Assembly: GCA_004431415.1 (NCBI GenBank) | Contig: QPMI01000469.1 | Span: 62,001 to 126,000, forward strand | Direction: 5' to 3' | DNA length: 64,000 bases | Source: Cyanophora paradoxa CCMP329 | Taxonomy: Eukaryota; Plantae; Glaucophyta | Part shown: in pieces, positions 6,393 to 64,000 of the stretch | Numbering within the stretch: position 1 is the first letter of the stretch | Layout: every line of letters begins with the position of its first letter | Notes under the pieces: model-generated | Told to the model about the DNA's origin: nothing | Seen by the model: the letters and a program-made list of their open reading frames with translations, nothing else | Databases searched by the model: none | Program-made: the position numbers and the translations under genes

Positions 6393-7212
6393 TCGCCCCG
6401 CTCACATGTGTGTATGTACTATGCATTCGATCGTGACACGTGACGTTCGCCAGCTGTTAACTAGCAGCACTTCTGTGGTCTACGCTGGGTGCGCGGTGCC
6501 TTGCCCGAAGGCTCGGCCACGGCCGGCCGTTCCGCCATGAGATCTACATCTTGAGAGCAAGTTGCAAGTTTGCTTGAGAGCACGCCCCCCCGGCGGGCCC
6601 TTCAGAGGGCCCTGCCTGCGTTGTCCGCGGCTTCTCGCCCCGTAGGTAGCACCGCCTCTTCTAGCTCGCGTTGTCCGCAGCTAGTATGCCAGTGTTATCA
6701 ATGTGCAAGTTTGCCGTTCCGCTCTGACTCGAGCTACTATAGCTACTCCAGTTTCAAGTTCAACGGTTTGCCATTATCATTACGTGCACGTACGCGTACG
6801 CGTACGCGTGCATGCGCATGCACGTGGCAGCTGCAGCGCGCCCCCGGCCCGGCGGCCGCGCCGCGCGCGCGCGCTAGCGCTGCAGCTGCCGGCCGCGGCC
6901 GGGTGCCGCGGCGCGCGTCGCGCCGCGGCGCGCGCGGCACATTGCATGCATGCGCAAGCCTTGAAGCTTTAAGTTAAATTCCTCCGCGAGGCTCGGGTCA
7001 CTGCGCGCGGCGTCAGCTCACAGCTAGATAGCTATAGCGCTGCAGCTGTAGGGCGCGCAATCACGGATTGGCGCTCATGATCAGCGGCTATAGCTAGCCG
7101 TCACACCGAAATTCTGCCTGGAATCTGCCATGGTGGGCGGGTACAGTTATTATTGTCATCCATCAGCACGAGCAGCGCGCGCAGCTCTAGAGTTGCCTAC
7201 CAGGCCAGCGCA

Positions 7213-8330: not shown

Positions 8331-8413
8331 GCCAATCCGTCCCAAAATAGCTACCGGACGCAAGCGACGACCCTGATGCATGCGTCAAGTGCGCAATTGC
8401 AAACGCTGCGCTG

Positions 8414-8770
8414 CCCGCCCCCCCCCCCCCCCCCTCCCCCCCCCTTCCCCCTCGTCAGGGCCTCGCGTGCACATGTACCATGCGCGACGGACCAGCTGAC
8501 TTTGTGACGCGGGGGCGCTGGCAGGTTCTCCCTCGACCCCACTTTCGACTACGACCACTGCCCCTCACCCCGAAGCCCACCATTTTCGCCCCCGGGGGCG
8601 ACCAATGGGGGCAGGCTTTCCCCAGCAGGGCCGTGATTGCAGTTTATTCCGTGGTGTCTGTTCAATAGCTCTGCATTCCTGCGGTAAATTTGGGGCCCGG
8701 GGAGGGGGGGGGGGGGGCGGGGGGCGGAGGGGGGGGGGGGGGGGCGGGGGGGAGAGGCGGGGGGGGGCGT
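8414..8770. repeat. Poly-C tract (8414-8450) and poly-G tract (8692-8770); G-quadruplex-capable
   Basis: Long interrupted homopolymer runs read directly. Confidence 0.8.
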
Positions 8771-9066
8771 GAGGGGGGTACCGGTACCACCGCACCGTTG
8801 CACCATAATTATAAGGAGAGCTGTCACGTCAGGAGAGCTGTCAAGGCCACGGCGACGAGCATGGCCTCCGATACGCGCCTGACCGTCGGACCAAGGGGTG
8901 GCTCCGGATCCTTGACCCGGTGACCCCCCCAATTGCAAGCCTTGCAAGCCCGTTCTGCCAGCTGGCGCCGGCCATGCCATGATGGTCGTGCCAGGCCCTC
9001 TATTTAATTTCCGCCGCGAGCCGCCCTTGTTCATCCCGAACGCACTTCGCATCTATATATATATAG

Positions 9067-17667: not shown

Positions 17668-17739
17668 TAGCCCGACCGGGAATCGAACCCGGATTTCGGC
17701 CGTGTGAAAGCCGTGTACTAACCGTTATACTATCAGGCC
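17668..17739 (-). tRNA. tRNA-Val (anticodon CAC)
   Basis: 72-nt cloverleaf: GGCCTGA/TCGGGCT acceptor, CGGCT-TTCACAC-GGCCG anticodon arm, CCGGG-TTCGATT-CCCGG T arm, discriminator A. Confidence 0.9.
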
Positions 17740-45564: not shown

Positions 45565-45847
45565 ACACATAGTAAAATGCGGAGTTTTAACCCTCGGCTT
45601 ATCTTAATTGATTTTGTTGATATATCTCGTATATTCTATTTCAATCAATCGATAATCTGTGTATATCTTATCGAATATTCAATTATTTCGATTATTTTGT
45701 ATTCTTTTCGATATTTTATCGTAAATCTCTCTTATTTTCCGATTAGTCTTACTGAGTCTATCGATAATCTGTATATATTTCCGAATAATATAACTGAATC
45801 TCAATTAGATCTTGCCTCTGGTTAAAACTCCGCATTTTACTATGTGT
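45565..45847. repeat. 28-bp perfect inverted repeat (45565-45592 / 45820-45847) around a 227-bp T-rich spacer
   Basis: ACACATAGTAAAATGCGGAGTTTTAACC and its exact reverse complement. Confidence 0.95.
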
Positions 45848-46101
45848 GATTGGTCTAAAAGTTAATTGATTTAATCGATATTATATTCATGTACTTTCTC
45901 GATTAAATTTAATTAAATTTAATTCATTTAATCGGAAATATATCGCTAAACTCGATTAAGATCCATAAAAGATTCATTTGTTTAATAAAACAAATCGATC
46001 TCTTATTGAATTCAATCGTAATTATACATGAAACTTATATGATTTGATCATTGTTTTATTGAGTCTAAGGGGGGACCCTTAGGAATTTAATGAATAATTG
46101 G

Positions 46102-46192
46102 GTGTCACAGGTGTCACAGGTCCATCCCATCGAAAGGGAAAATCACTCTTTATAGGGCTTGAGCTGGGATAAACCTGTGACACCTGTGACAC
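46102..46192. promoter_or_regulatory. 20-bp inverted repeat built from 9-bp tandem units; candidate replication origin or protein-binding site
   Basis: GTGTCACAGGTGTCACAGGT (46102-46121) and ACCTGTGACACCTGTGACAC (46173-46192). Function is inferred. Confidence 0.55.
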
Positions 46193-46698
46193 ATACCATA
46201 TTCAGTAAGGACCTCATATATTGTTAAAATCTCAGTGTTAGTTGGTGTAGTTGATTCAAAAAATGCATTTATACTCTGATTCATTGTTATTTCCTGTGAA
46301 ATTTGAGTCAACTCAACCCACTTAGTCAACCCTTGCATTGAATTCGTAACAAAATCCATATACTATTACTACTTTTACGATTAATATGAGTCAACCTTGA
46401 GTCCACTTAAATATAAATATAATATAATAGGGGGAATCTAGGGCAGATGCTGAGTGTTATTGTAAGGAAATCGAATAGTATTCGAAATACTTGACATTGC
46501 TTAATGTAGGGTGCATTCATATTTCGGCTACATCATACAGTAGAAATCTATCGTAACAAATGACCGGAATCCGGAAAATAATCATTGTAGAAAGCTATTG
46601 TATGAAAAGGATATATTATATCCTTTTTTAACAGTAGCTGATCAATGTTATTGTTAGAAAAACAAAGGAATCCTTTAGAAATTCATTATAGAAACCCA

Positions 46699-47097
46699 TC
46701 AAAACGGGAATCTATCATGTTTATGTCTCTCAGTCTTCTCAAATGTGAGGAAATTCATTGTTTTATCGATCTCATCAGCAACTGCTTGTGTTTTATGCTG
46801 AGCTTCTTTACCACAACTGAATATATCAATTGCTAACATACCTTCATTGGAATAACAATGAGCTGTGCAATGGCTTTCATCTAAAAGCAAAACCAATGCA
46901 AACCCAGGAGGTGATACTTTGCCATCAAATATCTCACAGTGTTTATGAACAATCCTAATGCCTTGTCTTAATACTGCTTGTTCAAGGGTTCCCATAATCC
47001 AATTACCTAGGAAGCTAACATGCTCATGTCCTGTTGCAATAGCTGATTTAGCCTTGTAATCAAGCATAACATGAAAGCCTCTGTATTGAGTCTCCAT
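46699..47097 (-). CDS. speD: Prokaryotic-type pyruvoyl S-adenosylmethionine decarboxylase proenzyme (SpeD/SpeH-like)
   Basis: 132 aa; G.HVMLD N-motif, PPGF..VLLLDESHCTAHCY self-cleavage motif, AIDIFSCG. Confidence 0.9.
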   Translation of the reverse strand: METQYRGFHVMLDYKAKSAIATGHEHVSFLGNWIMGTLEQAVLRQGIRIVHKHCEIFDGKVSPPGFALVLLLDESHCTAHCYSNEGMLAIDIFSCGKEAQHKTQAVADEIDKTMNFLTFEKTERHKHDRFPF

Positions 47098-47126
47098 TAA
47101 GAATACCTTAGAAAAATTAATTAAAC

Positions 47127-47399
47127 CTAATCGAACCTAATACACACATCCCTATATTCCACAGTGATTGATGAAGTAGCCCTTTTCCTATAAGCCTGAG
47201 AGTGCTTTTTGTTGCATTCCCTACACCCTGATCCCTTCACATGATTGAATGGATAGGTAAGGATCACCTTATTACACTGCAAACATCTAACAGATACTTT
47301 CTCTTGAGCTTTGATGTAATGTGTCTCACTGTAATCGAATTTATCTTTACCATGAACTGTCATAGCAGCATCAATAAACTTTTTTGTTTTAGTATCCAT
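47127..47399 (-). CDS. Stand-alone DUF723-like zinc-ribbon protein
   Basis: KFI..A..VHG.DKFDYS...Y.....KV...C..C......P.NH..G.GC..C pattern, seen in viral homing-endonuclease-associated domains. Confidence 0.75.
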   Translation of the reverse strand: MDTKTKKFIDAAMTVHGKDKFDYSETHYIKAQEKVSVRCLQCNKVILTYPFNHVKGSGCRECNKKHSQAYRKRATSSITVEYRDVCIRFD

Positions 47400-47421
47400 A
47401 CTCTATATATACCCAATATTC

Positions 47422-48255
47422 TTATGGAGCAGTATCCTGCCCAAAAATGGGGAAATATCGATTTGTGCCATAGTATTCAGCATAGGTATTCTGCTTTGCA
47501 ATAAAATCGGTTCTCTCAGCATATAATACACACTTGTAGATACCAAACTTGGTGGCTCTCACTAAGAACTGGTAATCTTCTAAACCGAAATTGACTCCAT
47601 GATAAGCAATTCCAAAATTATCATATGGGGTGATCACAACAGCAAAATTAGGAGTTCCACCCTCTACTTGACAAAGAGCATAAACATCTGGTGGAATATC
47701 CACAACAACCTTGTAGTGGTCACCAATCTCAACAAGAGAGTCTACTACTGCTGTTTGTTCATTTACAACAATGGGGAATATCTTTATAATGTATGGGGCA
47801 TTCATGCTGGGGACATAGGTTCGAATTCTTGTATTGGAATCAATGGGATTGGGTTGATCATTCACAAATAAAGGCGCTCCAACAGCCCCACCAACCCTAA
47901 GACCATCACCAATATAAGCTCCCCCCGATTTGCAGTTAATAGCTCCCGACCTAGATTCAAAAGAATAAGTAGACAGAGGATCTCCATAGCTATCTGGGTC
48001 TCCATAATGAGCAGAGAAGTTTGCATTTGTGACAAGTAGCTTAGTTGTCTTAACTATTCCATTATTTTTATCACATCTGAGTTCCTGTAATCTCAGTTTA
48101 TGGGTGGAACCAAAGGTGTTCATTGTAGGTTGGACCTCTGTTGATTGGAGACCCTCTACATCATCAAAGGTAGCATGCTGTAGAACATGGTTTGCTGGGG
48201 CAGCTAATGATAGCTGTGGTGTAATAATTCGTTCAAGTGGGGGTTGCTCAGCCAT
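47422..48255 (-). CDS. Fibre-like paralogue 1 (shared N-module; phage-fibre-type C-terminal domain)
   Basis: ELRCDKNNGIVKTT..SGGAYIGDG module; C-terminal IP..VYAL..VVITPY..Y.CVLYAERTD. Confidence 0.65.
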   Translation of the reverse strand: MAEQPPLERIITPQLSLAAPANHVLQHATFDDVEGLQSTEVQPTMNTFGSTHKLRLQELRCDKNNGIVKTTKLLVTNANFSAHYGDPDSYGDPLSTYSFESRSGAINCKSGGAYIGDGLRVGGAVGAPLFVNDQPNPIDSNTRIRTYVPSMNAPYIIKIFPIVVNEQTAVVDSLVEIGDHYKVVVDIPPDVYALCQVEGGTPNFAVVITPYDNFGIAYHGVNFGLEDYQFLVRATKFGIYKCVLYAERTDFIAKQNTYAEYYGTNRYFPIFGQDTAP

Positions 48256-48278
48256 TTTACATTAAAGGGATATATCTT

Positions 48279-49124
48279 TTATGGGGTTGGGTCATCAATT
48301 ACATCTGGCTCTTGGTAAAACCCTGTTTGAGAAAGAGTATCAGGAGTAACACCTCTAAGAGCTGAGACAGCAGCTATATCTGTTCTGATACCCATAACTG
48401 TAATTGTATATTTTCCAATATCTGTAACAAACAGATCATAGGTGAAATTGTTATTATAAACACAGAACCCTGTGCCGAAATGATCATATCCCTGAACACT
48501 GAAATTGTATCTGTGACCTGGCTGGTTATTGTTGGCTCTACATAAAGAAAGCATTGCAGAAGGAATGACCAGCCCTCTCATTACTCTTTTGGTTCCTTCA
48601 ATCAATTCAGAGTTTTCAAGTGTGACAGTATAACCTTGGTAAAATTGAATAAGTGGCTGTTGTGCAACTGGTATATATAATCGAATTCGTTGGGGGTCTT
48701 CAACATTCTGTTCAAGAGTATCTGGGACATCATTATACGAAATTGAGGATGAAAGCTGACCTGAAACTCTGCAGCCACCCCCAATAAAAGCTCCTCCTGA
48801 TCTCACAGTAACAGCTGCAGAATTCTTATCGAAATCAAGGGCTTTCAGATCAACACTGTAGGCATCAGGACCTCCATTGGTAGGCTGGAAAAAGTTAGCA
48901 TTTGTGACAAGAAGTCGAGTTGTTTTAACCACACCAGAATTCTTATCAGCTCTCAGCTCTTTAACTCGAATAATCGAATTTTTATCAAAGGAGTTGCCAT
49001 TGGAATTGGGTCTCTCTGTGGATTCTAAACCACGAACCTCATCATTTACTTCATGCTGGCGAAAATGCATTGCAGGGGATCCAAGGGAATATATAGGCAG
49101 TTGAACTCGATTATATTCACCCAT
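48279..49124 (-). CDS. Fibre-like paralogue 2 (start more likely at MGEYNR, 49124)
   Basis: ELRADKNSGVVKTT..SGGAFIGGG module; C-terminus alignable to paralogue 1 (YDHFG..KYTITVMGIRTD). Confidence 0.65.
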   Translation of the reverse strand: MGEYNRVQLPIYSLGSPAMHFRQHEVNDEVRGLESTERPNSNGNSFDKNSIIRVKELRADKNSGVVKTTRLLVTNANFFQPTNGGPDAYSVDLKALDFDKNSAAVTVRSGGAFIGGGCRVSGQLSSSISYNDVPDTLEQNVEDPQRIRLYIPVAQQPLIQFYQGYTVTLENSELIEGTKRVMRGLVIPSAMLSLCRANNNQPGHRYNFSVQGYDHFGTGFCVYNNNFTYDLFVTDIGKYTITVMGIRTDIAAVSALRGVTPDTLSQTGFYQEPDVIDDPTP

Positions 49125-49159
49125 TGCTTCTTTTACTAAGAAGGAAAGAAAAATAATGT

Positions 49160-49426
49160 TCATTGTTCTTCTGTGACATTATTATACTCAATACCTTTCT
49201 TTACAGTTCCCTTTTGGAAAGCCTGCAACACAATTGCTTCCTTGGAGGTTGGTATTTGAACTCCTGATGAGATACAAGATTGAATCTCTTTCTGAACAAT
49301 CTCATCAATTGCAATTCTTGCCCTGTTATGAACAACATTATCAATCCAATCCTGAACAGAGGCAGCACAGTACTCCATTCCCAAATTTTCGGTATCAGAT
49401 AGAACAACTTGGTATATATTCGACAT
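49160..49426 (-). CDS. Small phage-type protein, candidate fibre assembly partner/chaperone
   Basis: 88 aa with LSDTE..MEY.A....WI.N...NRARIAIDEIV, which I recall from small ORFs next to C1q-type tail fibres in aquatic phages (not searched). Confidence 0.55.
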   Translation of the reverse strand: MSNIYQVVLSDTENLGMEYCAASVQDWIDNVVHNRARIAIDEIVQKEIQSCISSGVQIPTSKEAIVLQAFQKGTVKKGIEYNNVTEEQ

Positions 49427-49447
49427 TCCTACTTAATAGTGAGAAAA

Positions 49448-50472
49448 TTATGTGATACTTAGAAGTTCACCAGTAAACATGGTTCGACTTGAATAACTAC
49501 CTGTGGTTCCTGTGACAATTGTTACATATTCTCCTGCAGCAAGATTGAGTATAACATTTATATAAAGAGGTTTTGCTGCAATTGTTGTCGAAGTTCCAAA
49601 GGTTCCAATGGAAAGACCACCAGGGTTAGTGTCATTCACCTGCAAAGTAAGACTTACAGAAGATGAAGTTGTGGAGGCAGAGTTTACTGTAAATCTGTAA
49701 TGACCTGCAACAGGAGCTGTAAATCTTCCATTGCCTACATTGAATGCACCTCTGTTATCAATAAAAACTGTTGTCCAGTTAATGAGAGGGGCAGCACTTG
49801 TAGCAGTGTGTGTGTAACCAAGTTGAACACATAATCGAGGTTGAAAATCATACTTTAAATAACATCCTGTATTCAGGGTGAAACTATTGGCTTCCAGGGT
49901 CGCCATAACATCACTATTGCGTTTAAAAACCAGATTTGCGCTTGATCCTGTGTCTATTTCAGGTGTAACTATTTTGGTAGTTGCTGAAACAATAGATTGT
50001 TGCGCCCCAGGAACATACACACCCCCATTTGCTGTTACCAAATCATTAAACGTAGTTGCTCCTGTTACTGTGATTTGTTCTGTTGTAAGATTCCCATTTA
50101 TTCTTGCTCCATCTCCAATGTATGCCCCTCCACTTTTTACCACAAGAGCAGAGTTATTACTTGTGTTATCAAAAGTAACAATCTTGGGTGTGGTGAACCC
50201 TCCCACATCATCATAAATTGCAGAATCCGAAACGATCTGTCCTGATTGAACTTGATTTTTATTCGAAACTATGAGACCTGTGGTTCTCACCTTCCCCCCA
50301 TTTCGATCACATCGAATTTCTTTGCATCTAATTACAGAGTTCTGCGAAAATGAATCTGCCCCAGTTGTTTCTGTACAAATAAAACCTGGGTTGCATCTGT
50401 TACAGCATGGTTAAGTTGGTGTATTTTTGGGGCAGCATAACAGAAAACAGGGACTGCTATTTGAGTAGCCAT
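49448..50472 (-). CDS. Fibre-like paralogue 3 with C1q-like tip; one 1-bp frameshift near 50388-50390
   Basis: Adding one C joins MATQIAVP..DATPGFICTET..KEIRCDRNGGKVRTTG to ORF 49448-50290. C1q-like GRFTAPVAGHYRF..LNLAAGEYV..FTGELL. Confidence 0.75.
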
Positions 50473-50494
50473 TCTTTATATTACACAGACAATA

Positions 50495-51567
50495 TTATAT
50501 GGCGCTTACCAGATAACAGCCCAAGTAACATCGTTGGCTTATAGTGATAGTAACACCTGTTGAGTTTAATATTCCAACACTGTCCCCATGTTAAGAGTAA
50601 TTAATGTTTCGTATGTGATAGCCATTTGTCCTGTTAATGAACATTGAAATTCGTAATTGGATGCAATTCCATTTATTGAAAGCTTTAAGATAGTCACATA
50701 AGAAGTCTGAGTATCTACTCTGAGAGCTGTGAAGAAAACCCTGTATACACCTGCAACAGGTGCAGTAAATAAATACCAATCATTCCAGTTGCCTTCATTG
50801 TTGACATAATAAGTGGCGAAACTAGGAACTGTAAAGGTAACTTGAGAGCCAGATGCCCATGATGATGTTGATACTGTCTGATTGGGTAACAGTTTTGTGA
50901 CACAAAATCTTGGGCAATAGGTCCTTTTCAGATAGCAAGTTGGAGAAAGTGTGAATGATTTTATCTCTGTCTCTGCAACTGTCGTTTTTTCAAGAGTGAC
51001 AATTGTATTACCATTTACTTTGTAGGTCATGTTGGAATCTGTTCCAGTACCAATTTCGGGTGTTTGAACTCTCAGAAATGCTTGAAGTGTCCCATAAATT
51101 ATATTTCCTAAAAGACCAGAGTTGATATTCATTAATTGAGTAAAACTGCTTGTCCCATTCACAGTCAACTGATTTGCTGTGACAGTCCCCACCACAATTG
51201 CTCCATCACCAATGTAGGCTTCTCCACTTCTGACTACAAGAGCCGAATTATTTATTGTGTTATCGAAATTAACTATCTTTGCTGTGGTGAATCCACCCAC
51301 ATTATCATATATTGCTGAATTGGGGACTATTTGACCTGCTTGAATCTGATTTTTATTCGAGATTATAATGCCTGTGGTTCTTATCTTGCCTTCATTTCGA
51401 TCACATCGAATTTCTTTGAATCTGAGTATATTGTTCTCTGTGAAAGAGGTATTACTTGAAGTTTCAGTGCAAATATACCCAGGGGTTGAATCAACTACTC
51501 CATGAGAGGTGCTATGGAGTGATTTGGCTGCAAGTTCATAGTTTGGGATCTCTAATAGTGAGGTCAT
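50495..51567 (-). CDS. Fibre-like paralogue 4 with C1q-like tip; one 1-bp frameshift near 50584-50587
   Basis: KEIRCDRNEGKIRTTG module; FTAPVAGVYRVFF. Adding one G restores the C1q-like end LNMGDSVGI..YLGCYLVSAI*. Confidence 0.75.
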
Positions 51568-51586
51568 CTTTATATTAATCAAATAG

Positions 51587-54500
51587 TTAAATTGCGACAG
51601 CAATGTAATGGATTGTCACAGTTTTGGATGAATTATTCATTGCATATGGATCAGTGAAAAGTTCACAAGTGAAATAGTTACTGTAAACCTCCAACAGGTT
51701 CACAGTAAAAATGACAGGAGTTGCTTGATAATTTGGATCTTGTCCTTCATGCCTTACTGTTGCTGTCACAACAGGAGGAGAAGCAAAGGCATTGGTAAAA
51801 TAGATAGTTAGATTGAACACATAGAGATTATTGTAGTTCAAAACAGGAGTAGTGTAAACATACTTTCCTGCTTGAATTTTCCCATTCAAATATGCATTGA
51901 GTTGACTGGAAAGATCTGCTTCTGTAATGCATCTACTGATAGTCTGATTATTTGAAGGGTTCATAGCATAGAAATTCCTTGCATAGGCATTCCCTCTCAC
52001 AAGTAGTGTTTGATCATAATAATTCTGCGAATTGTGGAAAAACCATGTTTCATCAAACATAGGTCCTGCTGGTTCTACAATCTGACCTGATCCTACATAC
52101 ATTGTGCTGTTGGCTCTAATAGTGGTTGCTGTGAATGGATCAAGAGTTGGTCTATTGGTCAAATCATTGTAGTTGCCTGAGAATATTGCAGGTTTGTTAG
52201 AGATATCTGTATTCCAATCATGAGTGTGTGCAAAGTCTGTAATCTCTGCCTTTGTGTGATTGTGAGCAAAATCTGTTATCTGTGACTTGGTGTGAGTGTG
52301 TGCAAAATCTGTGATCTCAGATTTAACATGAGTGTGAGCGAAATTCGTAATATCTGCTCTGGTGTGGGTGTGAGCAAAATCTGTTATCTGTGATTTTGTG
52401 TGAGTGTGTGCAAAATCTGTGATCTCTGCTCTTGTGTGGGTGTGTGATCTATTATTTAGATCAAGGAAGCTTCCCGAAAATGCAACAGGATGCAGATTTG
52501 CAGCAGTAGGTTTATTAATGAGATCATTATAATCTCCTGTAAATGAAATGGTTTTCAGTTCACCCCTTCCTACATAATCAGAAGGTAGATCAATCTTGAT
52601 GGGCATGATAGCTGGATCATCTGGAATCTCATACTCACCTCCTGGGTGAACCACAGGGAAGGTTTGATTGCTTTCAGTGTGGACAAAGAAATTGCATGCT
52701 GTTACTGTTCCATCAATAATCCCACCTGTGAGAGGGAGGTAATTTCCTGTGACTCCTATACCTGCAATGATTGTATTAAGTTCTGTTTCATCTATGTAGT
52801 TCTGGGCTTGAAGGTAATCCTCTGTCACCACTCTTGATATGGTCTCATTGTGAATATTCTTTGCTGCTGCCCTCTGATTGATCTCTAGAACTCCCTCACC
52901 AACTCCACCATTATAATTCGTTTTGATCCATGCCATCTCACATCTCTTATAGTCATCTCGATTTCCTATGAGAGCATCAGGTAACAGTCTCTCCCTGCTA
53001 AATATTAACTTTGGTCTTGAACCATCCAAATCACTCACATCAGTAACATTTATTTGGATTGCTGCATCTTTATCATCAAAGTTCACTGGATCAGATGGAA
53101 GTGGTGGTAATCCTGCTGTCATTGGGATGTCATCAGCATAGTAACTTGTCAAATAGATACCTGGTTTGGTGTCCAATGCTCCAAAGTTTCCACCTGCTGC
53201 AATCATCTGCATTCTTGTAGGGGGTCTGATGTATAATTCACCCTCCATAGTGGTCCCTGCATCAATGCCTTTTCGATTTACATAATAGTCATTGAGTTGC
53301 GGCCTTTCAGGTATGGCATTGCTCTGGTAAAGACTCACACCATGTGGGAAATCTGTTAACAGATTGCCTGCAGATGCAAATTTGGGTTGCTGATCGATTT
53401 CACTCCAAGGGTGTCTGTGATTGCAGTTGGTGATCTGGGTATAATCATGAGTGTGAGTATCAGGAGGGAAGGTGATAGGTTTGTCTACAATATTTGACCA
53501 GGCATGGGTGTGATCATCTGGGGGAAAAGTCAATGGTTTGTCCACAATATTCGACCAGGCATGAGTGTGATCAAAATCTATAATTTGGTCTTTGGTGTGG
53601 GTATGGTTTTTGATCCACCCATCCACAACATTTGAAGTTGAATGATGTGGGAGGTTTGCATTAGATGTAACAGTAAGAAAATCGACAGTTATATTGCTTG
53701 CATAAAGGTTACTTGTGTAAAGGTTACTGGTTACAGTAAGGTCCCCTGTGATTGTTCCACCAGTTTTGAGAAGATACTTTGATAATTCAAGAGCAAGTTC
53801 ATTTTTCGTTACATAATTTGCGAGCATAGCAAGGGTGACTATATTCACAAGAACAACAGCAGTAAGGTAATCCTCTGTGACCACTCTCGAAATATTTTCA
53901 TTGTGTATGTTTTTTGCAGCCATCCTCTGATTGGATTCCAGAACCCCACCATAGTTGGTTTTAATCCATGCAAGCTCTGCCCTTCCATAATTATCATTTG
54001 CAGTTCCCACTATGGGAATGTAGGAATATTTATCTCTGCTGAATACTATCATTGGTCTTGAGCCATCTAAACTGCTTACATCTGCTACATGAACCTGTAT
54101 AGCAGAGTTGTAATTTTGGTAGGTTGCTGGGTCTGTAGGGACTCTGAATGTATCTGTGGGAATGTCAGCCTCCATGTAGCTTGACACAAAGATATTTGGT
54201 ATGGTTGCTCCTGGTTCAGGTGGTGGATTATAAGAGCCTGGTAATGTCCTAATATGAAGTGGTCCTCTCATAGCTGAATTTGCAAGTGTCCCATTCACAT
54301 GAACATAGTGTTCATTCAAAAAGATCCTTTCAGGGATATTACAAGTCTGGTAAAGAGAAACCCCCAAGTTATCAAGAGGCTCCACCTTTGCGAATTCTGG
54401 TTGGTCATTGATCTCATCCCAGGTGTGTTCATGGTTGCTTGCTGCAAACTTATCTGGAATCCCATCAATTTCACCCCAATCATGCCTGTGATCCTCTGGT

Positions 54501-55870
54501 GGATACTTCTGAGGTTTGCCTAAGATCTCATCCCAATCATGATTGTGATCCTCTGGGGGATACTTTGCAGGTTTATTATTAATTTGTTCATAATCAGGAA
54601 AGAACTCCCAGATCTCAGGTCGAAATCCATCTGGTAATAATTCCTCATGGGGTTCATAAGGTTGCTCATAGTCAACAGCTGGTGGATCATGCCCATCTGG
54701 CAAATACTCCTCATCAGGTTCATAGTTCTGCTCATACTCAAACTCTTGTGGATCTAAGCCATCTGGTAGTATCTCCTCCTCATTGGGATCAAACTGATCA
54801 TATTCATATTCTTGTGGGTCAAAACCATCTGGTAAATATTCTTCCTCATCTGGAACGAATTGATATTCATCAAGCTCTAATATATCGACTTCAGGAGGTA
54901 AATACTGCTCATCTATTTGCTTTCTGGGTTCAATTATAGGTTTATTGCGAACTTGCTCCCAACTAACAATATGCTGCCCAAAGGCTACATCTTCAGTTGC
55001 TGTGTATTCTCTTCCAGGCTGCTTCTTTGGTGTTAAATCGGGAGGTCCATTGGGAAATGGAATAGGGAATGGGACTGTTGGTCCATTGGGACCATAATGC
55101 TCGATTATTTCCCTTAGAGTTTTCTCACTCACAAGTTTCTCCCCATTTGCATACACATTGCTGCCATGGATATTTCGCCATTGCCTTGTTCGAATTCCAA
55201 GGTCTTTCACATTGCTATACAAAGGCAAAAGGTGCCTATCCATTTCGACTAAATCAGGGTGTAAATGGATTGCTACTGGTTGACTGGGGCTACTGTTGAT
55301 TGTAATTGATGGCTTTTTTTGATGGACATCTTTTGGAGTAAAAAACCCAAAAGGCTCATTCCTCGCAAAGTCATATGTAATATCCTTGGGGTATACATCA
55401 TTTGTGTAGGAGACCTGATTTGTGTTGGCAATGGGACCCACTTGCAATACTTGGGGGACCTCAGCTTTTGCAGTGTTGCCCTCACTGTAAATTCGCAAAG
55501 CTGTGTTCTGTTTGCCCTGCTCATCTTGAACATTGAAAATCAATCGACCACTATCGAACCTGGAAGGTATATCTGGGTGAGTGCCACTGGTTTTTAGTTT
55601 CCTAGGTCTCCTTCTTGTTGCTTTGATCTCTGCCACTTGGTTTGCTTTCACATTACCCAAGGTGAAAGCAACACTGACATCCTCCTTATCTGGATCGGTT
55701 TGATTCACAGATAAAGCATGCTCCCTTGATTGAGTCTTTGAAGAATTATCCGAGCTGTGGTCAATTGAAACTGAACCCTTTACTTTAATATTATCAAAGT
55801 TCACATGCTTGGTGCTGCTTGCATTATCATCTTGAATGGTTTCTAGATTGGGTGGGTAATTGAAGCTCAT
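51587..55870 (-). CDS. 1427-aa tail-fibre-like protein with acidic repeats, HxH tail repeats, a duplicated internal module and a C-terminal H-type-lectin-like domain
   Basis: EEYLPDGxDP repeats; HTHTKSQITDFA and HTHAWSNIVDKP repeats; YLxxTGGxIxG shaft motifs; two copies of GVSLYQ..AWIKTNY..ISRVVTEDYL; C-terminal F..AFASPPVVTAT..IHYIAV. Confidence 0.8.
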   Translation of the reverse strand: MSFNYPPNLETIQDDNASSTKHVNFDNIKVKGSVSIDHSSDNSSKTQSREHALSVNQTDPDKEDVSVAFTLGNVKANQVAEIKATRRRPRKLKTSGTHPDIPSRFDSGRLIFNVQDEQGKQNTALRIYSEGNTAKAEVPQVLQVGPIANTNQVSYTNDVYPKDITYDFARNEPFGFFTPKDVHQKKPSITINSSPSQPVAIHLHPDLVEMDRHLLPLYSNVKDLGIRTRQWRNIHGSNVYANGEKLVSEKTLREIIEHYGPNGPTVPFPIPFPNGPPDLTPKKQPGREYTATEDVAFGQHIVSWEQVRNKPIIEPRKQIDEQYLPPEVDILELDEYQFVPDEEEYLPDGFDPQEYEYDQFDPNEEEILPDGLDPQEFEYEQNYEPDEEYLPDGHDPPAVDYEQPYEPHEELLPDGFRPEIWEFFPDYEQINNKPAKYPPEDHNHDWDEILGKPQKYPPEDHRHDWGEIDGIPDKFAASNHEHTWDEINDQPEFAKVEPLDNLGVSLYQTCNIPERIFLNEHYVHVNGTLANSAMRGPLHIRTLPGSYNPPPEPGATIPNIFVSSYMEADIPTDTFRVPTDPATYQNYNSAIQVHVADVSSLDGSRPMIVFSRDKYSYIPIVGTANDNYGRAELAWIKTNYGGVLESNQRMAAKNIHNENISRVVTEDYLTAVVLVNIVTLAMLANYVTKNELALELSKYLLKTGGTITGDLTVTSNLYTSNLYASNITVDFLTVTSNANLPHHSTSNVVDGWIKNHTHTKDQIIDFDHTHAWSNIVDKPLTFPPDDHTHAWSNIVDKPITFPPDTHTHDYTQITNCNHRHPWSEIDQQPKFASAGNLLTDFPHGVSLYQSNAIPERPQLNDYYVNRKGIDAGTTMEGELYIRPPTRMQMIAAGGNFGALDTKPGIYLTSYYADDIPMTAGLPPLPSDPVNFDDKDAAIQINVTDVSDLDGSRPKLIFSRERLLPDALIGNRDDYKRCEMAWIKTNYNGGVGEGVLEINQRAAAKNIHNETISRVVTEDYLQAQNYIDETELNTIIAGIGVTGNYLPLTGGIIDGTVTACNFFVHTESNQTFPVVHPGGEYEIPDDPAIMPIKIDLPSDYVGRGELKTISFTGDYNDLINKPTAANLHPVAFSGSFLDLNNRSHTHTRAEITDFAHTHTKSQITDFAHTHTRADITNFAHTHVKSEITDFAHTHTKSQITDFAHNHTKAEITDFAHTHDWNTDISNKPAIFSGNYNDLTNRPTLDPFTATTIRANSTMYVGSGQIVEPAGPMFDETWFFHNSQNYYDQTLLVRGNAYARNFYAMNPSNNQTISRCITEADLSSQLNAYLNGKIQAGKYVYTTPVLNYNNLYVFNLTIYFTNAFASPPVVTATVRHEGQDPNYQATPVIFTVNLLEVYSNYFTCELFTDPYAMNNSSKTVTIHYIAVAI
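52222..52446. repeat. 36-bp coding tandem repeat (HTHTxxxITDFA, ~6 copies)
   Basis: Read from the DNA and its translation. Confidence 0.9.
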
Positions 55871-55913
55871 GGCTTTTACTATATGGATTTATAAAATTCC
55901 TGATAAGTAAAAG
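55871..55913. promoter_or_regulatory. 43-bp divergent intergenic region with inverted AGTAAAAG motifs next to both start codons
   Basis: CTTTTACT at 55873-55880 and AGTAAAAG at 55906-55913. Confidence 0.5.
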
Positions 55914-56147
55914 ATGCCTCTCAAGGTCGTTTTAGCATTGTCAGGGGGAGGTGCAAGGGGCATTATCATAACCAGGCTGCTAAAAGAAATCGAAAATCGA
56001 ACTGGCAGGAGAATAATCGATCTTGTGGATCTTGTGAGTGGAACTTCCACTGGTGGGATCATTGCAATAGGTTTGAATATAAGGCATCCTGATAGACCAG
56101 GTGAACCTAAACTGACAGCAAACGATTTACACAATATTTTGTTTTAG
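55914..56147 (+). pseudogene. Patatin-like phospholipase, N-terminal fragment interrupted at ~56140
   Basis: LALSGGGARG glycine loop and GTSTGG nucleophile motif are present. The catalytic Asp (DGG) region is missing, and composition changes at the break. Confidence 0.85.
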
Positions 56148-56739
56148 GAGGTTTTATACGTCCCAGTAGACCTTAGCAACCTTCCCGTAGCGTACCAGCA
56201 GCAGGCGAGCAGGCTGTCACGTTGCAAGAGAAAGCTGCTAATCACAGACTACTGTGTACCCTAGGACACGGCTACCGGAAAGTATCAAGCTAGAGTCAGA
56301 AAAAGTAGCTAGGGTCGCATCTTCGTACAGGGGTACAGTGACTCAGGAAATCGCGAGAAGCCGCGGGTCAAGTCACGGTACTACTGCGAACGAAGTGCAA
56401 ACGAAGCACTAACGGCTAGGAAACCCTATCGGCAACAGCTCTCCAGGTCCTCACAGACGCTTCCACGCGGCTGGATCAGAAGAGATGTAGAGCTGCGCAT
56501 TTGGTTGAGGGCAAACCAGGCAGCGGTGATCAGCCGCTGACCCAGCGCCAAGAGAGAATTCCCGAAACTCGCAAGCCACATCCCAGTGAAGGGCACGTCA
56601 TCGACAACGGAAGTGAATCCGGTAAACCGCAGTACCACTGGGAGATCATGTGCTGGTACGCCGACTGAGTAATAGTGCTTCGCCGACCTTTAGTACACCG
56701 ACAAGGTCGGTGTTTTCCCACGGGCGATTACTCCGACCA

Positions 56740-56828
56740 GGTCGGTGTAATAGGGGTCGGTGTAATAGGGGTCGGTGTAATAGGGGTCGGTGTAATAGGG
56801 GTCGGTGTAATAGGGGTCGGTGTAATAG
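56740..56828. repeat. 15-bp tandem repeat GGTCGGTGTAATAGG (~6 copies), preceded by CCGAC/GTCGG hairpins
   Basis: Read directly; hairpins ACACCGAC-aag-GTCGGTGT and ATTACTCCGACC-a-GGTCGGTGTAAT. Confidence 0.92.
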
Positions 56829-57293
56829 CGAACGTTGCCAACTGGCCCACTCGTTCTTTTCATCCCAGCGGCGTGTGGCTATTTGATTTAATGTTTAAAT
56901 TCCATCACACATGTAGCTGAATAAGTTTGACTAGAAAAAGCTGTCGCACAGAATACCTCCTGCGTATATCTAGCTATAATGCATATATATTTATCTGGGA
57001 AAGGATAAGGCAGGTCCCGAAGAAGAGACGAATGTGTCCCGCACCTCGAACCTTGAGCTTGTTGGCACTGGCTGGAACTGCGGACTTTGTTGAACGCATT
57101 GGCGAACTCTCCAGAAGTTGACGGATTGGTGCAATCATTCTGCGAATGAGAAGCACATTTAACGAAATTATAAAAACAGCTTGGAAAGGCTCGAACCATG
57201 AGCAGCTTGGTAAGGCTCGAGGTTGAGGACGAGGTTGGAAAGGCTCGAACCATGAGCAGCTTGGAAAGGCTCGAGGTTGAGCTCGAGCCGGAC

Positions 57294-58252
57294 GAACAAA
57301 GGGACTTGCGGAGACGTCGATTTCGTTGGGAAATCTGAGAAAGAGGACAATATAAAACATGATCCAGTTGTTGAAAAGGAAGCTGGGGATGTGGGGTACG
57401 CTGGACGCGCACGAACCGTGAGGCGCGATGATTTCTTAGAGGAGTATGAGTATGAAGTATGAAGAATGAGTATCAAGCTTGGGTTCTTGTGTCTTGCACT
57501 GGTGGACGTCTTGAACTATGGAGCTGGGGTGTGTGTGGATCTTGTTCTATGAGGTCGGTTGGCCTTGATTGCACGTTTTGTTGGTCTCATGTGGTGCCTT
57601 GAGTGGCCCGTCGGTTGGGAAAGGTCCGTGTTCCGCAAACTTCGAAAGCCGTATGAACAAAGGGACTTGCGGAGACGTCGATTTCGTTGGGAAATCTGAG
57701 AAAGAGGACAATATAAAACATGATCCAGTTGTTGAAAAGGAAGCTGGGGATGTGGGGTACGCTGGACGCGCACGAACCGTGGGGCGCGATGATTTCTTAG
57801 AGGAGTATGAGTATGAAGTATGAAGAATGAGTATCAAGCTTGGGTTCTTGTGTCTTGCACTGGTGGACGTCTTGAACTATGGAGCTGGGGTGTGTGTGGA
57901 TCTTGTTCTATGAGGTCGGTTGGCCTTGATTGCACGTTTTGTTGGTCTCATGTGGTGCCTTGAGTGGCCCGTCGGTTGGGAAAGGTACCGGTCCGTGTTC
58001 CGCAAACTTCGAAAGCCGTATGAACAAAGGGACTTGCGGAGACGTCGATTTCGTTGGGAAATCTGAGAAAGAGGACAATATAAAACATGATCCAGTTGTT
58101 GAAAAGGAAGCTGGGATGTGGGGTACGCTGGACGCGCACGAACCGTGAGGCGCGATGATTTCTTAGAGGAGTATGAGTATGAAGTATGAAGAATGAGTAT
58201 CAAGCTTGGGTTCTTGTGCCTCGCACTGGTGGACGTCTTGAACTATGGAGCT
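57294..58252. repeat. ~361-367-bp tandem repeat, about 2.6 near-identical copies
   Basis: Units start at 57294, 57655 and 58022. Differences include a 6-bp insertion and a 1-bp G-run change. Confidence 0.95.
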
Positions 58253-58701
58253 ATGAGGTTGGTTGGCCTTGAGTGTGTGTGGAAGAGTAAATGGAAGTCT
58301 AAGAATGAGTATGAAGTATGAAGAATGAGTATCTTGGGTTTTAATCTAAAAAGGGTGCGCGAAACAAATTCTTGAAAGAGAATAATAACTGAAAAACAGG
58401 GGAAACGAAGTCCCCTCCCCTCCACCAGTGCCCACTTAGCCCGTCCCCTCTCCAAGCTTGGTGGATGTCTATATGTCTTGCACTTGGGTACTTGGGACTG
58501 GATGGAAGAGTAGGTGTGTAGTAGAAGAGAGTAGAAGAGTAGAAGGTACTGGTACTTGGAAAAGTGGAGAGTAGTATGTGTGTGTATCTAGAAGAATGAG
58601 TATGAAGTATGAAGAATAAGTATCTTGGGTTCTTGGGTTCTTGGGTTCTTGTGTCTGGGATGTCTTGGTGGATGTCTTGAACGATGGTGCTGGGGTGTAA
58701 G

Positions 58702-58784
58702 TCCCCTCCCCCGCCCCAAGCCCCCCCCCCCCCCCCCCCCGCCCGCCCCGCCCCGCCCCCCCCCCCCCCCCCACCCCCACCCCC
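58702..58784. repeat. Poly-C tract (G-quadruplex-capable on minus strand)
   Basis: Read directly. Confidence 0.85.
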
Positions 58785-58999
58785 GGCCACGTTTCAGCCC
58801 GCGCTCGACAACCTGCGAGAATCAGAAGGCGAGTGGAGGTGTTAAAACGAAAAATATAATTGTTGACACTAGAAACTGTTACTACAGTTTGTGTCAAGAA
58901 ATTTGAGCGTTATCCTCCAGTTCATCTAAAGTCGATAAAATGTCGTGTCCATTGACTCCGTCGTTAGCTTCTGTCGAAAATATCGATACATTAAAGAGA

Positions 59000-61900
59000 T
59001 TTGAAGACGGTCACACCTTGAACGCCAGAACGATCTGCTTGCGTGTTCCCTGGAAAAACTGACATTTACAAAACCGGGTGAACCGCCTGCGCATTGTTGC
59101 GAACCGTTTGGCTTCATGAGGGGAGCGGTGGTGTGTGAGGAGGTGTGTGAGGAATCGACAAAAATATCCGTATGATCTTGCCATGTGTTCTCTTCTGGAT
59201 AATCTTCTAAAAAAATGGCAGGAAGGGTGTACTGCGAAAAAACAAATGACGTCAAATTTTCATATCATAATTAAAAATCACATTTACTCACATTTTTGGA
59301 AATGTCGTCAGATATGTGGTCGAACAAGGCGTGCGGGAGAAATTTACAGCTCTCTCGACTAAGAGCGTTGAGCTGATGTTCTTTGACAACATGTGACCTG
59401 TGCAAATCGTAAGGAACTATCACACTGATAAAGAAACATTACCGCGTACATGAACGCAGAATCAAGAATTGCGCCTTTGATGAATTTGTTGATCTCAGTT
59501 ATAACAAAAGTCGACCAAGTCCGAATTTTCTCGACCTTGTTAACCGCAGGAAGTCGATGCTCGTAAATCACTGCGAATTTAATGTTAAGGCGAAGTCTAA
59601 CGCACGTCTGAGGCGAAGTCTAACGCACGCTTCCCACTCTTGGGTTCAGGAATAACAAAACCAACACCAACAACAACGAGTTCGCCAGTTTCAGTCATCT
59701 CCCAGTTATATTCGCTTTCGTCGCGCTGAGCGGATCTCCGCAATAAATTGAAGCGATTCCAGCCGTCGTACTCATCCATTTCCACCTCTCTGAAACAAGG
59801 AGGTTCACCCAGCTTGCGCTTGTCTGCTTTGATTCGTCGAGCAACAGATTGAAGCGGAAGCTTGATCAAAACACGTTTGACCTGAAAACACATAAGCGTT
59901 CAGGTCTTGGACTTACACGGGAATACTTACACGCTTGGACTCGGGCACATCAGGTCTTGACCTTAACACCATTTCGTCACGAAGTTGTTGGCATTGAGAT
60001 AAATACCTTTGAGATTTTGGCTTAATCACAACCGCAACCTGCGCATTTCATGGCCGGCGTCACAAAGAATGGTAAAATCATCACAAACAGACCTTGGAAT
60101 GCTGGAGTTGAACTGCTCGTTGCTTCTTCGCGCCAGTCGTTCTTTGGAGAGTAAATAACAAACGACAAATCTTTCTTGTGACATTTAAAGCGTACCTTTC
60201 ATCTGAACCATTGCTCGACGACCCAGGACGTTTGTATCCTCTCGTCGCTGGTTCAAGGCTCTGTTTGGATATTTTGTCATCGTCATCGTCAATCGCGTTT
60301 TGATCGGAATCTTCGCCCTTTTCGGCCTTCGGCGGTCTCACGCGTGGTCTTCTTTGGCGCTTATGTGGAATTGCTGCGAACTGCGAGCAATCAAATGTTT
60401 GACTGATCATTTTTCACTTGCACGCACTGGATCGTGTTCAACGAGCGACATGGACGGTTCGTTGACGCTTGGTTCGTCATGCACAGGAGTCTCTTCGATC
60501 AGGTCAGCTCTCCAGAAGATTGATTTGAACCGTCCCGAGATGCTTTCCATATTGGGCTGCAATATAAGTTGGATTTGAAAAAATTGAAGTCATTCGCTGA
60601 AATTGAAGGCATACCGCATTCGTTTGCTGGACAGACGAGACTCTAAGATCCTGAAAATGCCATGGAACTTTCATACCAATGCGTCTCGCCGTCATAACAA
60701 CGACCAGATGTTCAACGGAGACTCCATGACTGTCCTGAAAGAACAGTTAGAAGTTATAAAAAGCAAACAACGATCAAACCTTTGGCAAGATGATGCCATG
60801 TTTCTTGACAAGAAGCTCGATGTTCACTCGACCAGTGTACATCCCAGCGGCAACAAACTCTTTCGTGACATTGCCAGTTGAGTCAGTTCTTGGATAATAA
60901 AGGTTAACCAATGCGCCAAATGGCAAAGAGGTCTGCTCGCGTCCTTGTCGACACTTTTCGATTCGCATTCTCCATCCCACATCTGAACAGCGCCATCTGA
61001 TTTGAGAAACGGCGTCACTGCAAAAATGTTGTCAGAGTCCAAATGAATTCGAAGTAATCAAAATGCAAAAACGAACGCCAATCGGCAGCATGTACGGTCC
61101 GGGTGAGATCCTTAGTCTTTGCATCGATATTGGTTTTTTTCTTCACCAAGTACTTCCGGTGTTGCGGGAGTCGTAGCCAATGATCTCACCGGATGACTCC
61201 TTGAAATATTGTTCAGAAGTATTTAATGATCTCAACCGATGACATCTTCGAAAAAATATTCAGAGGCTTACGTCTAAAAGTGCGAGCGAAGACCGCTTGT
61301 CTTTTCGCCATAGCCAGAGTCGGTAGTTCAGATACTTTTGGGCAACATGATCCGTGTAAGGTTCCTGTGATTGTTAAAGTTTGTAAGGTTCCTGTGATTG
61401 TAGAAGAATTTCAAATACCTGAAGTTTATGTGCAAGAAACTTGATAACGAGTATGATTCTTGAACGAAGTCCTGCCAACAATGGAATACATAAGCACCTA
61501 CAGTCGACAATCTCGAGGTTTGTACCGGGATAACAATTCGAGAAGTCAGACGGCCTCGGCTCGCAAATCGCTCTCCAGAGGCAGAAGATGATGGGCATTA
61601 AAGCTTCGTCAAAAATCCGGATATTGTCCGACTTTGTATATTTTTTCCCCTCCCGATGCTTTACCAGAAAACCACATCCTGTGCAAAAATGAGAATTTGA
61701 AGGCAAGTGAATATCGATCAATCTAACCTTCCGGTGGTGATGCGAAAATGTGGTCGTCAGGTACTTTGATATCGTACTTGGCATCGACAAAAAACTGTTG
61801 AAATTGAAGAATATGGTTGCGCTGATTTGCGCTGTTAATGTCAAGACTGAGAAAAATAAAAAAAGTACCAGTTCAGCGTTCGATCCTTGAAATCGATATG

Positions 61901-64000
61901 TGCCAAAATGGTCGATGAGCTTTGAAAGAAATGCGCTGATCGTTATATCGGAAATTTCACGATATCCGTTCACTCCGACGTTTTTCAAACCTGTATTAAG
62001 CTTTGATTTGAAAATGAAGCTCCTCGAAGAAAAAAAGAAAACGCACAAAAAGCTTTACGCATACTTCGTGTAGGAGAGGTACACTGAGAGGCCACGAATC
62101 CATTGGAGTTTCCATTTTCTGGAATTCTTTACTTGTGTCTGAAAGCAAGAAATCATGGTGAATATAAAAAACCAGAAATGACGATGAGAAACACGGATCT
62201 GCACATTTTGGCTTTCGAGCCGTAAGTTCGGCGAATTGATCAGCAAGCGGGTTACCCCATTTATATTTACTCGGCGTCGAGTCTTCGCAAGGTCCGATTT
62301 GGCGTTCCCGAATCTCACTCACAGCTGAGCGCAAGGTAAATTTCTTCAAAACTGACCGCAGAGCGAAAATCCGACGACGTACAGGTTTCGAACTTCCCTC
62401 TCAGGTCTTTCACAACAGATAGAAGAGTATTCTTCCGATCCTCTTCATCTGTGATAGCTCTTTGAAGCTCTTCAAGTTCAAGCCTGCAAAACGGTTAAGG
62501 AACACAACCTGTACCAAAAAAACAAACGAACTCGTCAGCTCCACTAAGTTCGCGGTCGCCGCGAAGTTTCGTTTTGGAAGCTATAGAAGTGATAGCTTCT
62601 TGAACACATGTCAATTGATGGGCAAGTGTCGTTGCGATTTGAAGGCATTTTGCTAATGACGTATCTCTCGCAAACGAGTCCTTGAGTCCATCGACCCTGA
62701 GAAGTGATCGTCAATAACCTCAATAAAATCGCCAGTAAAACACTTGCCTTTCGATGAATTTTGAGGTTGATTGGATACTTCGGCGCACAGAAGGAGAACC
62801 TTCTTCAGTCGACCATCTGAGTGTGCGGATAAATGTAAGCGATCAAATCCCAGAAACCGATTTTCCAACCGAAGTTCATAAATCCTCCATTGTCATGTCG
62901 AGGCCTTCCGTGAGAGTTGGAAAAGACGCTTGGATTTCTGATACAATAAAGAATTCTTGAATAAAGAATAAAGAAAGGAAATTGATTGATTGAAATAATA
63001 CCGGATTTAATTTGTCGGATCGAAACTGCAAGTTCTCGCTCACGCTTTGTTTGAAGAAGTATTTGATTGGGTGAGAGGCTGTACAGGATAAGGTACAAAA
63101 AATGGAGAAATGAACAAAATAGATCGCACCTTGTAGTTTCGCGATTTTCGATGAAGCTTCCAATTTCTCGAATCAGAGCTTTTCCCAGACGAAGCAGCTC
63201 AGTTGCTTGAGGCTGCTCGTGCAAATTGTTTTCTGCCGCCTCGAGCCTGCTAGGTGCATGATTCCTCCAAATTAGGGGTGCACAGATTCGCAAAGAGGTG
63301 CACACCTTGAAGCCATGAAGTTGAAATTCTCACGCTTCATAGTCAAGAGGTCGGAAGCAACTAAAGGTAGCGAAACGAGTCAAATTAAAGCTTTCGATCG
63401 CAGATGGGAGAACAGACACACGCGAAGTACAATCTTGGTCTCCAGGAAAAAGGCGTTTCATTTCATGAACTTCAGCTGTACATGACGAAAGAGATGTTTG
63501 CTTTTCTGATGCGAGAGAAGACGCCGGTGATCCTGCATTGAAAGCATTATAAAGAATTAACGACGTCAAAAACAGAATTAGAGTCACGCCTTCCACTTTG
63601 ATGGAGGGAGTGTTTGCCAGCGGGAAGGGCATGCGCTGCAGCTGAGGAAACGGGAACGGCATGGCTTTCGATTCTGCTTTAGTATTAAAAACGTGTCTGA
63701 CAAGCGCTTCATGCAGGAAACCAGACCTGAATCTCTGGAAGGAGAAGAGCGGAGATCAGACAGTTTATGAGATGCACCTGCCAGGAATAGGTTAACGAAA
63801 ACCAGAAGAAGAAGCGGCGTTTGAGATCGGCTTTACTGTACGAAGGGAAATTTGAACAGAACGCAAGATGTCCAAAAGGATTGCACCGTTCTCTTGGTCA
63901 GTTATGTCGACCTCCGATTTAATTGAACGCTCGAGTGAACTCCCGACAGCCCTGCTGCTTGAGCTTGAAGTCTGCAAAACTTTTTCGATGTCGTCAGAAA
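59000..64000 (-). CDS. Unidentified intron-rich gene or degenerate gene; 5' part beyond window
   Basis: Short coding-looking segments separated by ~50-nt GT...pyrimidine-rich...AG gaps on the minus strand (e.g. near 63780-63836 and 63082-63130). The reading frame could not be fully rebuilt. Confidence 0.4.

Follow-up and report, generated by a model that had tools for sequence, protein, structure and literature searches.

A many-copy, probably Polinton-like element of Cyanophora paradoxa encoding predicted trimeric spikes with a shared N-terminal module and different heads

Introduction

The Polinton-like viruses (PLVs) catalogued in the glaucophyte alga Cyanophora paradoxa (PMC10120064; PMC12220804) are the closest described counterparts of the element studied here, an AT-rich segment at positions 45,565 to ~56,140 of a window of 64,000 nucleotides (strain CCMP329, contig QPMI01000469.1, positions 62,001 to 126,000), in which four tandem fibre-like genes, A to D, share an N-terminal module. 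The supplement of the first study (sections 7 and 9) counts 366 capsid loci in C. paradoxa, in two clusters of 272 and 94; by column count, these capsids stand in the 'iterative HMM' block of its Table S4, outside the virophage block, and the best HHpred hits given for such proteins in its Table S2 are of giant-virus type. Table S6 of the second study lists 156 glaucophyte elements, 66 with an S-adenosylmethionine (AdoMet) decarboxylase, 89 with a lipase and 85 with an rve integrase, of which only 2 match the standard capsid profile. Because the capsids have giant-virus-type hits and mostly escape the standard PLV profiles, the C. paradoxa elements may form a distinct lineage. The second study also includes a section on phage-like fibres in PLVs, reports patatin fusions in glaucophytes and lists a 'PTR PTR H_lectin' fibre for one C. 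paradoxa PLV, and adintovirus-like sequences have been noted in this alga (PMC8502044). Compared without core genes, the present element shares with these viruses the host, many copies, AdoMet decarboxylase, lipase/patatin and the PTR-PTR-H_lectin fibre. It differs in its C1q heads (C1q has 0 hits in the main text and supplement PDF) and in a shared module, a small gene S and head exchange, which the same texts do not mention.

The C1q-tipped receptor-binding proteins described for marine and freshwater (glacier) phages (PMC3909814; PMC7468147) likewise have a conserved N-terminus and a variable C1q head and lie beside a long tail fibre, and their N-terminus recruits far more reads than the head, as we find here. 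In phages DC33 and S-SRM01, homologues of S follow C1q-tipped genes, again as here. The present genes, in contrast, belong to a eukaryotic element with many integrated copies, and the profile of their module finds no match in the four phage loci that hold S homologues. Among small eukaryotic DNA viruses, virophage DSLV2 also has several consecutive phage-related fibre genes, but its tripartite tail proteins are reported to be T4 gp37-like and to form one heterotrimer with fixed positions (PMC12724248), whereas the heads here differ in fold and A is a predicted homotrimer. PLV Gezel-14T likewise has a long phage-like fibre (Ltf) and a lipase, both of them found in its particles; the accessible text describes one gp36-like fibre and no set of short paralogues, unlike the present locus (10.1101/2022.07.28.501842).

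We consider it likely, while allowing appreciable doubt, that the segment represents a many-copy C. paradoxa element, probably a PLV, in which A to D encode predicted short trimeric attachment spikes, the module likely fixing them to the capsid and the heads likely binding surface sugars. Elements of this kind, their host and their phage-like fibres were known already. For such viruses, the shared module, the swapping of heads and the C1q heads accompanied by a phage helper gene are apparently new: none was found in the literature searched, including PMC7805220, PMC11161782 and two 2026 preprints (subscription papers and preprint supplements were outside reach), nor did that literature include a paper joining 'Polinton-like', 'C1q' and 'fiber'.

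Results

Four short fibre-like genes share an N-terminal module

From its left end, the element encodes an AdoMet decarboxylase, a zinc-finger piece, A, B, S, C, D and the long fibre L, all on the minus strand, and then a cut patatin gene on the plus strand (Table 1). An earlier sequence-only reading of this DNA had recognised A to D as tandem paralogues with a shared N-module marked by two motifs, and this is borne out: each motif is found four times in the window but is absent from all 200 shuffled versions of the element, and a profile of the ~120-aa module matches all four proteins at E 5e-35 to 5e-46, with no match in L, which lacks the module. The module matched no Pfam or PHROG family and no solved structure at E < 0.05. 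A search of wider sequence collections with the module profile, as the same reading had proposed, returned seven matches among 1.84 billion representatives, namely three C. paradoxa gene models (13 more in their clusters) and four environmental proteins; a second search gave five matches in 7,998 candidates, three of them new and with names in the style of the first set. The module itself appears to be undescribed.

Searches for related loci were negative for metagenomes and, with D, AdoMet decarboxylase, the module alignment, L, the environmental relative P0001 and patatin as queries, for viral contigs, so that no full-length relative with capsid genes was obtained. D had no homologue among 1,354 candidates, and C had no match in phage genomes. 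Both C and D are frameshifted, the first ~27 residues of C lying in another frame. As other contigs hold one extra base at both sites (at 50,583, all covering contigs of three runs), the frameshifts may be assembly errors, which have been described for repeats of this kind (PMC10120064, section 7).

The heads and the predicted trimer

C ends in a C1q domain that scores above the Pfam cut-off (32.5 bits against 23.7), and the model of a relative, P0003, superposes on the C1q fold (Z 20.1, rmsd 1.6, 130 aligned) in agreement with its sequence profile. The match in D is partial, covering profile positions 38-106 of 134 at a Pfam E of only 0.034. A and B carry homologous heads of another kind. The sequence-only reading had assigned C1q-like tips to two paralogues and a phage-fibre-type domain ending in RTD to the other two; this division stands for C against A and B and in part for D, but RTD is not at the very end, sitting ~30 residues before the C-terminus (at 248 of 277 in A and 247 of 281 in B), and is replaced by RND in the closest relative.

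The head of A, which matches no Pfam family, was modelled with pLDDT mostly 62-86 over residues 153-256. Seven chains matched it at Z of at least 5 (5.3-6.2; rmsd 2.2-4.0; 68-86 aligned): the cyanophage Pam1 tailspike head, Helix agglutinin, phage AP22 gp53, a white spot virus envelope protein, two pyocin fibre entries and discoidin. Three of the entries (four chains) are fibre tips of phages or pyocins, two are H-type lectins and one is the viral envelope protein. These scores are middling but the set is coherent, and the A/B head likely resembles H-type lectins and phage fibre tips, with putative sugar binding. It is probably of the same fold class as the tip of L, in which case the window may hold two head folds rather than three; the A and L tips show no sequence similarity. 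Foldseek with the model of A gave no PDB match at E 0.001. Its viral matches, mostly phage tail proteins, were not used (rmsd 12-29 on a half-unfolded model), and the Atlas comparison for B (best 0.79) was uninformative.

In complex prediction, three copies of A reached a trimer score of 0.80, compared with 0.00 for the best of three controls, with at least 64% contact agreement and pLDDT of at least 54 in the A runs. The predicted interface comprises residues 58-133 and 157-248, with 1-57 unplaced; A is thus predicted to be a homotrimer in which module residues 58-133 wind as a shaft below a head formed by 157-248. Fold matches and trimer prediction together support the proposal, made in the sequence-only reading, of phage-like trimeric fibres that combine a shared module with different heads. 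The 'anchor' role that this reading gave to the module is putative, and its arsenal for multiple hosts or helper viruses is conjectural.

Evidence for head exchange

Sequence comparison gives direct evidence of recent head exchange in a sister family of C. paradoxa module genes. Seven sister modules form one clade (support 100/99), and modules 84-96% identical carry three unrelated heads, a C1q head (P0005 and P0013, 36% identical to each other), a 277-aa second type (P0006, P0010 and P0011) and a third type (P0141); identity between the head types is 19-25%, against a shuffled background of 24 +/- 3. Such combinations argue for exchange, since point mutation cannot produce them. The members of this family (P0005-P0020, P0141-P0143) are annotated as host genes, many of the models consisting of the module only, and in P0142 the module is joined to an upstream protein with tail-repeat-like motifs. 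The possibility that the second sister head is a peptidase G2 chaperone was not confirmed; this head matches phrog_34132, to which no function is assigned.

Near-identical modules on unrelated heads were not seen within the window. Here the modules pair by head type (A/B 48% and C/D 67% identical), so the window alone does not show exchange, and A and P0001 keep the same head (module 60%, head 64% identical). Both observations count against our interpretation and fit an alternative in which the trimeric spikes of a PLV received their heads long ago by duplication and have diverged by point mutation, with no exchange now. The evidence for exchange in the window's own family is indirect. The depth of the module exceeds that of the head 6.6-9-fold in C, 12-22-fold in D and 3.4-5.7-fold in B (0.8-0.9 in A), a pattern published for the C1q-tipped phage proteins cited above. 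Among 15 of the 16 joints, six are shared by the two DNA runs and correspond to the C head at its conserved ends only; five of the six are at about single-copy depth in DNA run X2. Rapid divergence could also explain the dip in C and D, as could one module shared by several C1q paralogues. Since the sister family combines near-identical modules with unrelated heads, we regard heads fixed long ago as improbable, though worth keeping in view.

A phage-type gene among the paralogues

Between C and B lies S, an 88-aa gene absent from the description in the sequence-only reading. Its phage homologues are 39-53% identical and directly follow a C1q-tipped gene in three of four phage loci, the fourth following a tail-assembly-chaperone gene; a viral-contig scan with S found two loci. 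The order in the phage loci matches D-C-S here, which points to the C1q heads and S as a cassette from freshwater phages. From the same gene order, S probably helps to assemble C1q-tipped fibres. In cyanophage S-SRM01, too, short fibre-like genes stand in tandem around the S homologue, and two of them have C1q heads.

The segment is the left part of a many-copy element

The window holds a truncated copy of a many-copy element, with the left 10,576 bp retained. Fibre-related genes make up 8,338 of these, in line with the ~8.4 of 10.6 kb estimated in the sequence-only reading. GC content is 0.39, against 0.67 in the intron-rich left flank, and falls from 0.57-0.78 to 0.22-0.30 at the left end. 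This end is a gene-free stretch of 1.1 kb that opens with a perfect 28-bp inverted repeat (45565-45592 / 45820-45847; fold z -8.5). Its sequence has no second copy in the window, where a single element end is present. The end holds several palindromes, possibly a replication origin: the perfect repeat, whose arms are separated by 227 nt, together with imperfect palindromes at 45895-46018 and 46087-46208. In the element genes CpG is depleted (observed/expected 0.23) while TpG (1.41) and CpA (1.36) are raised, as expected from CpG methylation, which has been reported on repeats and viral genes of C. paradoxa (PMC12344493). The loss is restricted to the coding part (46699-55870), the non-coding end (45565-46690) having a ratio of 1.07, and 35 of the 74 CG left lie in a TCGA context.

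Across most of the element, summed depth, which is not a copy number, is 10,000-50,000 in three runs and 2,600-8,800 in a fourth, against 12-95 for single-copy host contigs in the same four runs. The depth comes from thousands of contigs 85-99% alike and thus indicates a large diverged family. Of 62 within-gene differences listed (the best-supported of >1,400), 40 are synonymous and none is a stop, which suggests that the family is under selection for function.

Depth hundreds-fold over single-copy sequence and the drop in GC relative to the host are both marks of a PLV, and the accessory set (AdoMet decarboxylase, patatin and a PTR and H-lectin fibre, the two fibre domains below Pfam cut-offs) is that of glaucophyte PLVs, specifically of C. 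paradoxa. The endogenous PLV proposed in the sequence-only reading is thereby supported, and the element most likely belongs to the catalogued C. paradoxa set. The same reading had suggested a possibly undescribed family; at the level of the element this is not upheld, because C. paradoxa PLVs with phage-like fibres, lipase and AdoMet decarboxylase are already catalogued (PMC10120064; PMC12220804). Weighing against the assignment, the window holds no capsid, ATPase, polymerase or integrase gene. Nor did the region past the break near 56,140, where the sequence-only reading had proposed to look for capsid, ATPase and polymerase genes, yield any usable Pfam match in 16 frames. PLV membership therefore rests on accessory genes.

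The lack of a PLV core gene would also be expected of a piece of endogenous giant virus (Nucleocytoviricota) amplified in the genome, with the fibre genes being giant-virus fibres. Giant viruses, too, can carry patatin, AdoMet decarboxylase and zinc fingers of the HNH type. Giant-virus insertions have indeed been reported in C. paradoxa (PMC12344493), but the hundreds-fold depth, the sharp end with its 1.1-kb non-coding terminus and a gene set shared with the 156 catalogued small elements (PMC12220804, Table S6) make this origin quite unlikely. No Nucleocytoviricota hallmark gene was found in the 10.6 kb, which are only part of the element.

Hints of transcription

Two runs that are only guessed to be RNA (X15 and X16) hold 12 and 14 contigs on 47,400-51,650, against 1,038 and 1,483 in the DNA runs; no run holding the stretch is on record as RNA. 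These contigs include a single one, 98% identical, that covers A together with part of B at a depth of 33-43, and short pieces nearly identical to C and D of this copy at depth 2-9, depth over B to D staying below 15. This is a weak hint of transcription of the paralogues. The uneven coverage of A and B-D would hint, equally weakly, at secreted or cell-surface lectins that are made from integrated copies and block or trap other viruses, the capsid partner of the spikes being conjectural. The phage-type gene order with S and a long fibre speaks against such lectins, as does the finding of a comparable PLV fibre in the particles of Gezel-14T, and we hold them to be very unlikely.

Host and junctions

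An exon of the flanking P4-ATPase flippase is 100% identical to a C. paradoxa protein. Of 24 listed runs from one organism, 20 contain at least part of the stretch and 14 contain more than half of its words. At the left junction, single-copy host contigs end at 45590 in 4/4 runs after running 26 nt into the element with 0 differences, short of the 31 letters required for a bridge. At the right, none of the 32 pieces listed bridges the junction; beyond 56,315 the depth drops, and other contigs have a different continuation at 56,139. This junction may be misjoined. Contaminating phage DNA or an assembly chimera, for which one could cite the phage-like heads and S, the frameshifts that point to assembly errors and the want of a listed contig with 31 letters on both sides of either junction, is ruled highly implausible by the presence of more than half of the words in 14/24 runs, the host-unique contigs that enter the end without differences, the CpG and TpG ratios that fit host methylation and the C. 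paradoxa gene models among the module relatives.

Long fibre, accessory genes and flanks

The sequence-only reading had placed a 1427-aa fibre with a lectin-like tip beside the paralogues. The open reading frame is confirmed and has phage-tail repeats; the tip match is weak (E 0.0013, below the cut-off), and L fits the PTR-PTR-H_lectin fibre listed for a C. paradoxa PLV. In the region 52811-54356, L contains a block duplicated at a distance of ~1,020-1,050 bp and 16 HxH repeat positions; the number of repeats varies between copies. AdoMet decarboxylase is a polyamine-pathway enzyme, found here in a small virus; among the tabulated elements, only those of glaucophytes and some cryptophytes commonly carry it (PMC12220804, Table S6).

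Past the break, 56148-58790 is low-copy and has no protein match; it contains a 15-bp unit repeated six times (56740-56829), a 361/366-bp unit repeated about three times (57286-58312) and a C-rich run. The region 58795-64000 has 44% GC, no CpG depletion, about 4x single-copy depth, no long open reading frame and no Pfam match. The left flank (1-45500) carries, besides the flippase gene, tRNA-Val at 17668-17739. On motifs alone, further genes there may encode a forkhead/FHA protein, TM9SF, a WD40 protein, an EngA-type GTPase, an exosome subunit, an EGF-repeat protein and a carboxypeptidase.

Table 1. Features of the element, in window coordinates
Feature	Coordinates	Strand	Basis
Non-coding left end, presumed terminal repeat	45565..46690		GC drop, inverted repeat, host contigs ending at 45590 in 4/4 runs
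S-adenosylmethionine decarboxylase	46699..47097	-	PF02675, E 2.8e-11
Zinc-finger piece of HNH-endonuclease kind, 90 aa	47127..47399	-	phrog_681 and phrog_559, E ~1e-8, partial
A: N-module (1-122) and beta-sandwich head, predicted homotrimer, 277 aa	47422..48255	-	Fold and complex prediction
B: N-module and A-type head, 281 aa from second ATG	48279..49124	-	Against A: modules 48% identical, heads 25%, E 1.7e-6
S: phage-type protein, 88 aa, between C and B	49160..49426	-	Atlas 0.95 to tailed-phage clusters
C: N-module, short shaft, C1q head; frameshift near 50,390-50,410	49448..50474	-	PF00386, 32.5 bits
D: N-module, short shaft, C1q head; breaks near 50,583, stops 50,566	50488..51567 (ORF 50566-51567)	-	Profile matches
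L: long fibre, 1427 aa, phage-tail (HxH) repeats, internal duplication, H-lectin-like tip	51587..55870	-	Profile matches
Patatin-like phospholipase, cut after ~76 codons at element break	55911..56147	+	PF01734, E 4.4e-11, profile 1-58 of 191

Discussion

In the arrangement that we favour, a reactivated element would build small capsids carrying one long fibre (L) and several short trimeric spikes. Module residues 1-57 would dock on the capsid, perhaps on a vertex protein, and the second half of the module would form the shaft. The heads would bind sugars, most likely on the algal cell surface; the spikes may instead bind bacteria, as proposed for virophage DSLV2 (PMC12724248), or a helper giant virus. 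S may help to fold the C1q spikes, and patatin may aid entry, as the Gezel-14T report proposes for that virus (10.1101/2022.07.28.501842). The heads would have come from freshwater phages, and recombination between copies at the module/shaft boundary could replace them.

Several further observations speak against this arrangement. The module has pLDDT below 50 in both monomer models (A and the relative P0003), and Z values of 5-6, as obtained for the head of A, may reflect only a common arrangement. The mark used for the trimer is reached by 21 of 30 solved pairs and by 0 of 23 single chains, a calibration on dimers, mostly of microbes, that fits trimers only roughly, and the pass of A may stem from its likeness to solved fibres. 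When D was translated across its break with an X, its C1q score was no higher (20.4 vs 20.7 bits), and all five listed differences in the D module change the residue. The sister-family genes, known as gene models, may lie outside viral elements.

A bolder reading, which we offer tentatively and think doubtful as a whole, is that the hundreds of copies integrated in one alga act as a permanent store of receptor-binding heads, mounted on a capsid anchor peculiar to the lineage, and that recombination between copies would deal new heads from this store to reactivated particles. This would be a phage-style host-range cassette system in a eukaryotic virus, with heads and helper gene from freshwater phages; it might be directed at giant viruses and so amount to a heritable set of defences.

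Little is settled about how PLVs fix fibres to the capsid or select a cell or helper virus. The shared, otherwise unclassified module is a candidate attachment domain, and its several heads are available for assays; the host is a model alga in culture whose hundreds of copies allow comparison. The element would also show that phage receptor-binding cassettes, together with a helper gene, move into eukaryotic viruses.

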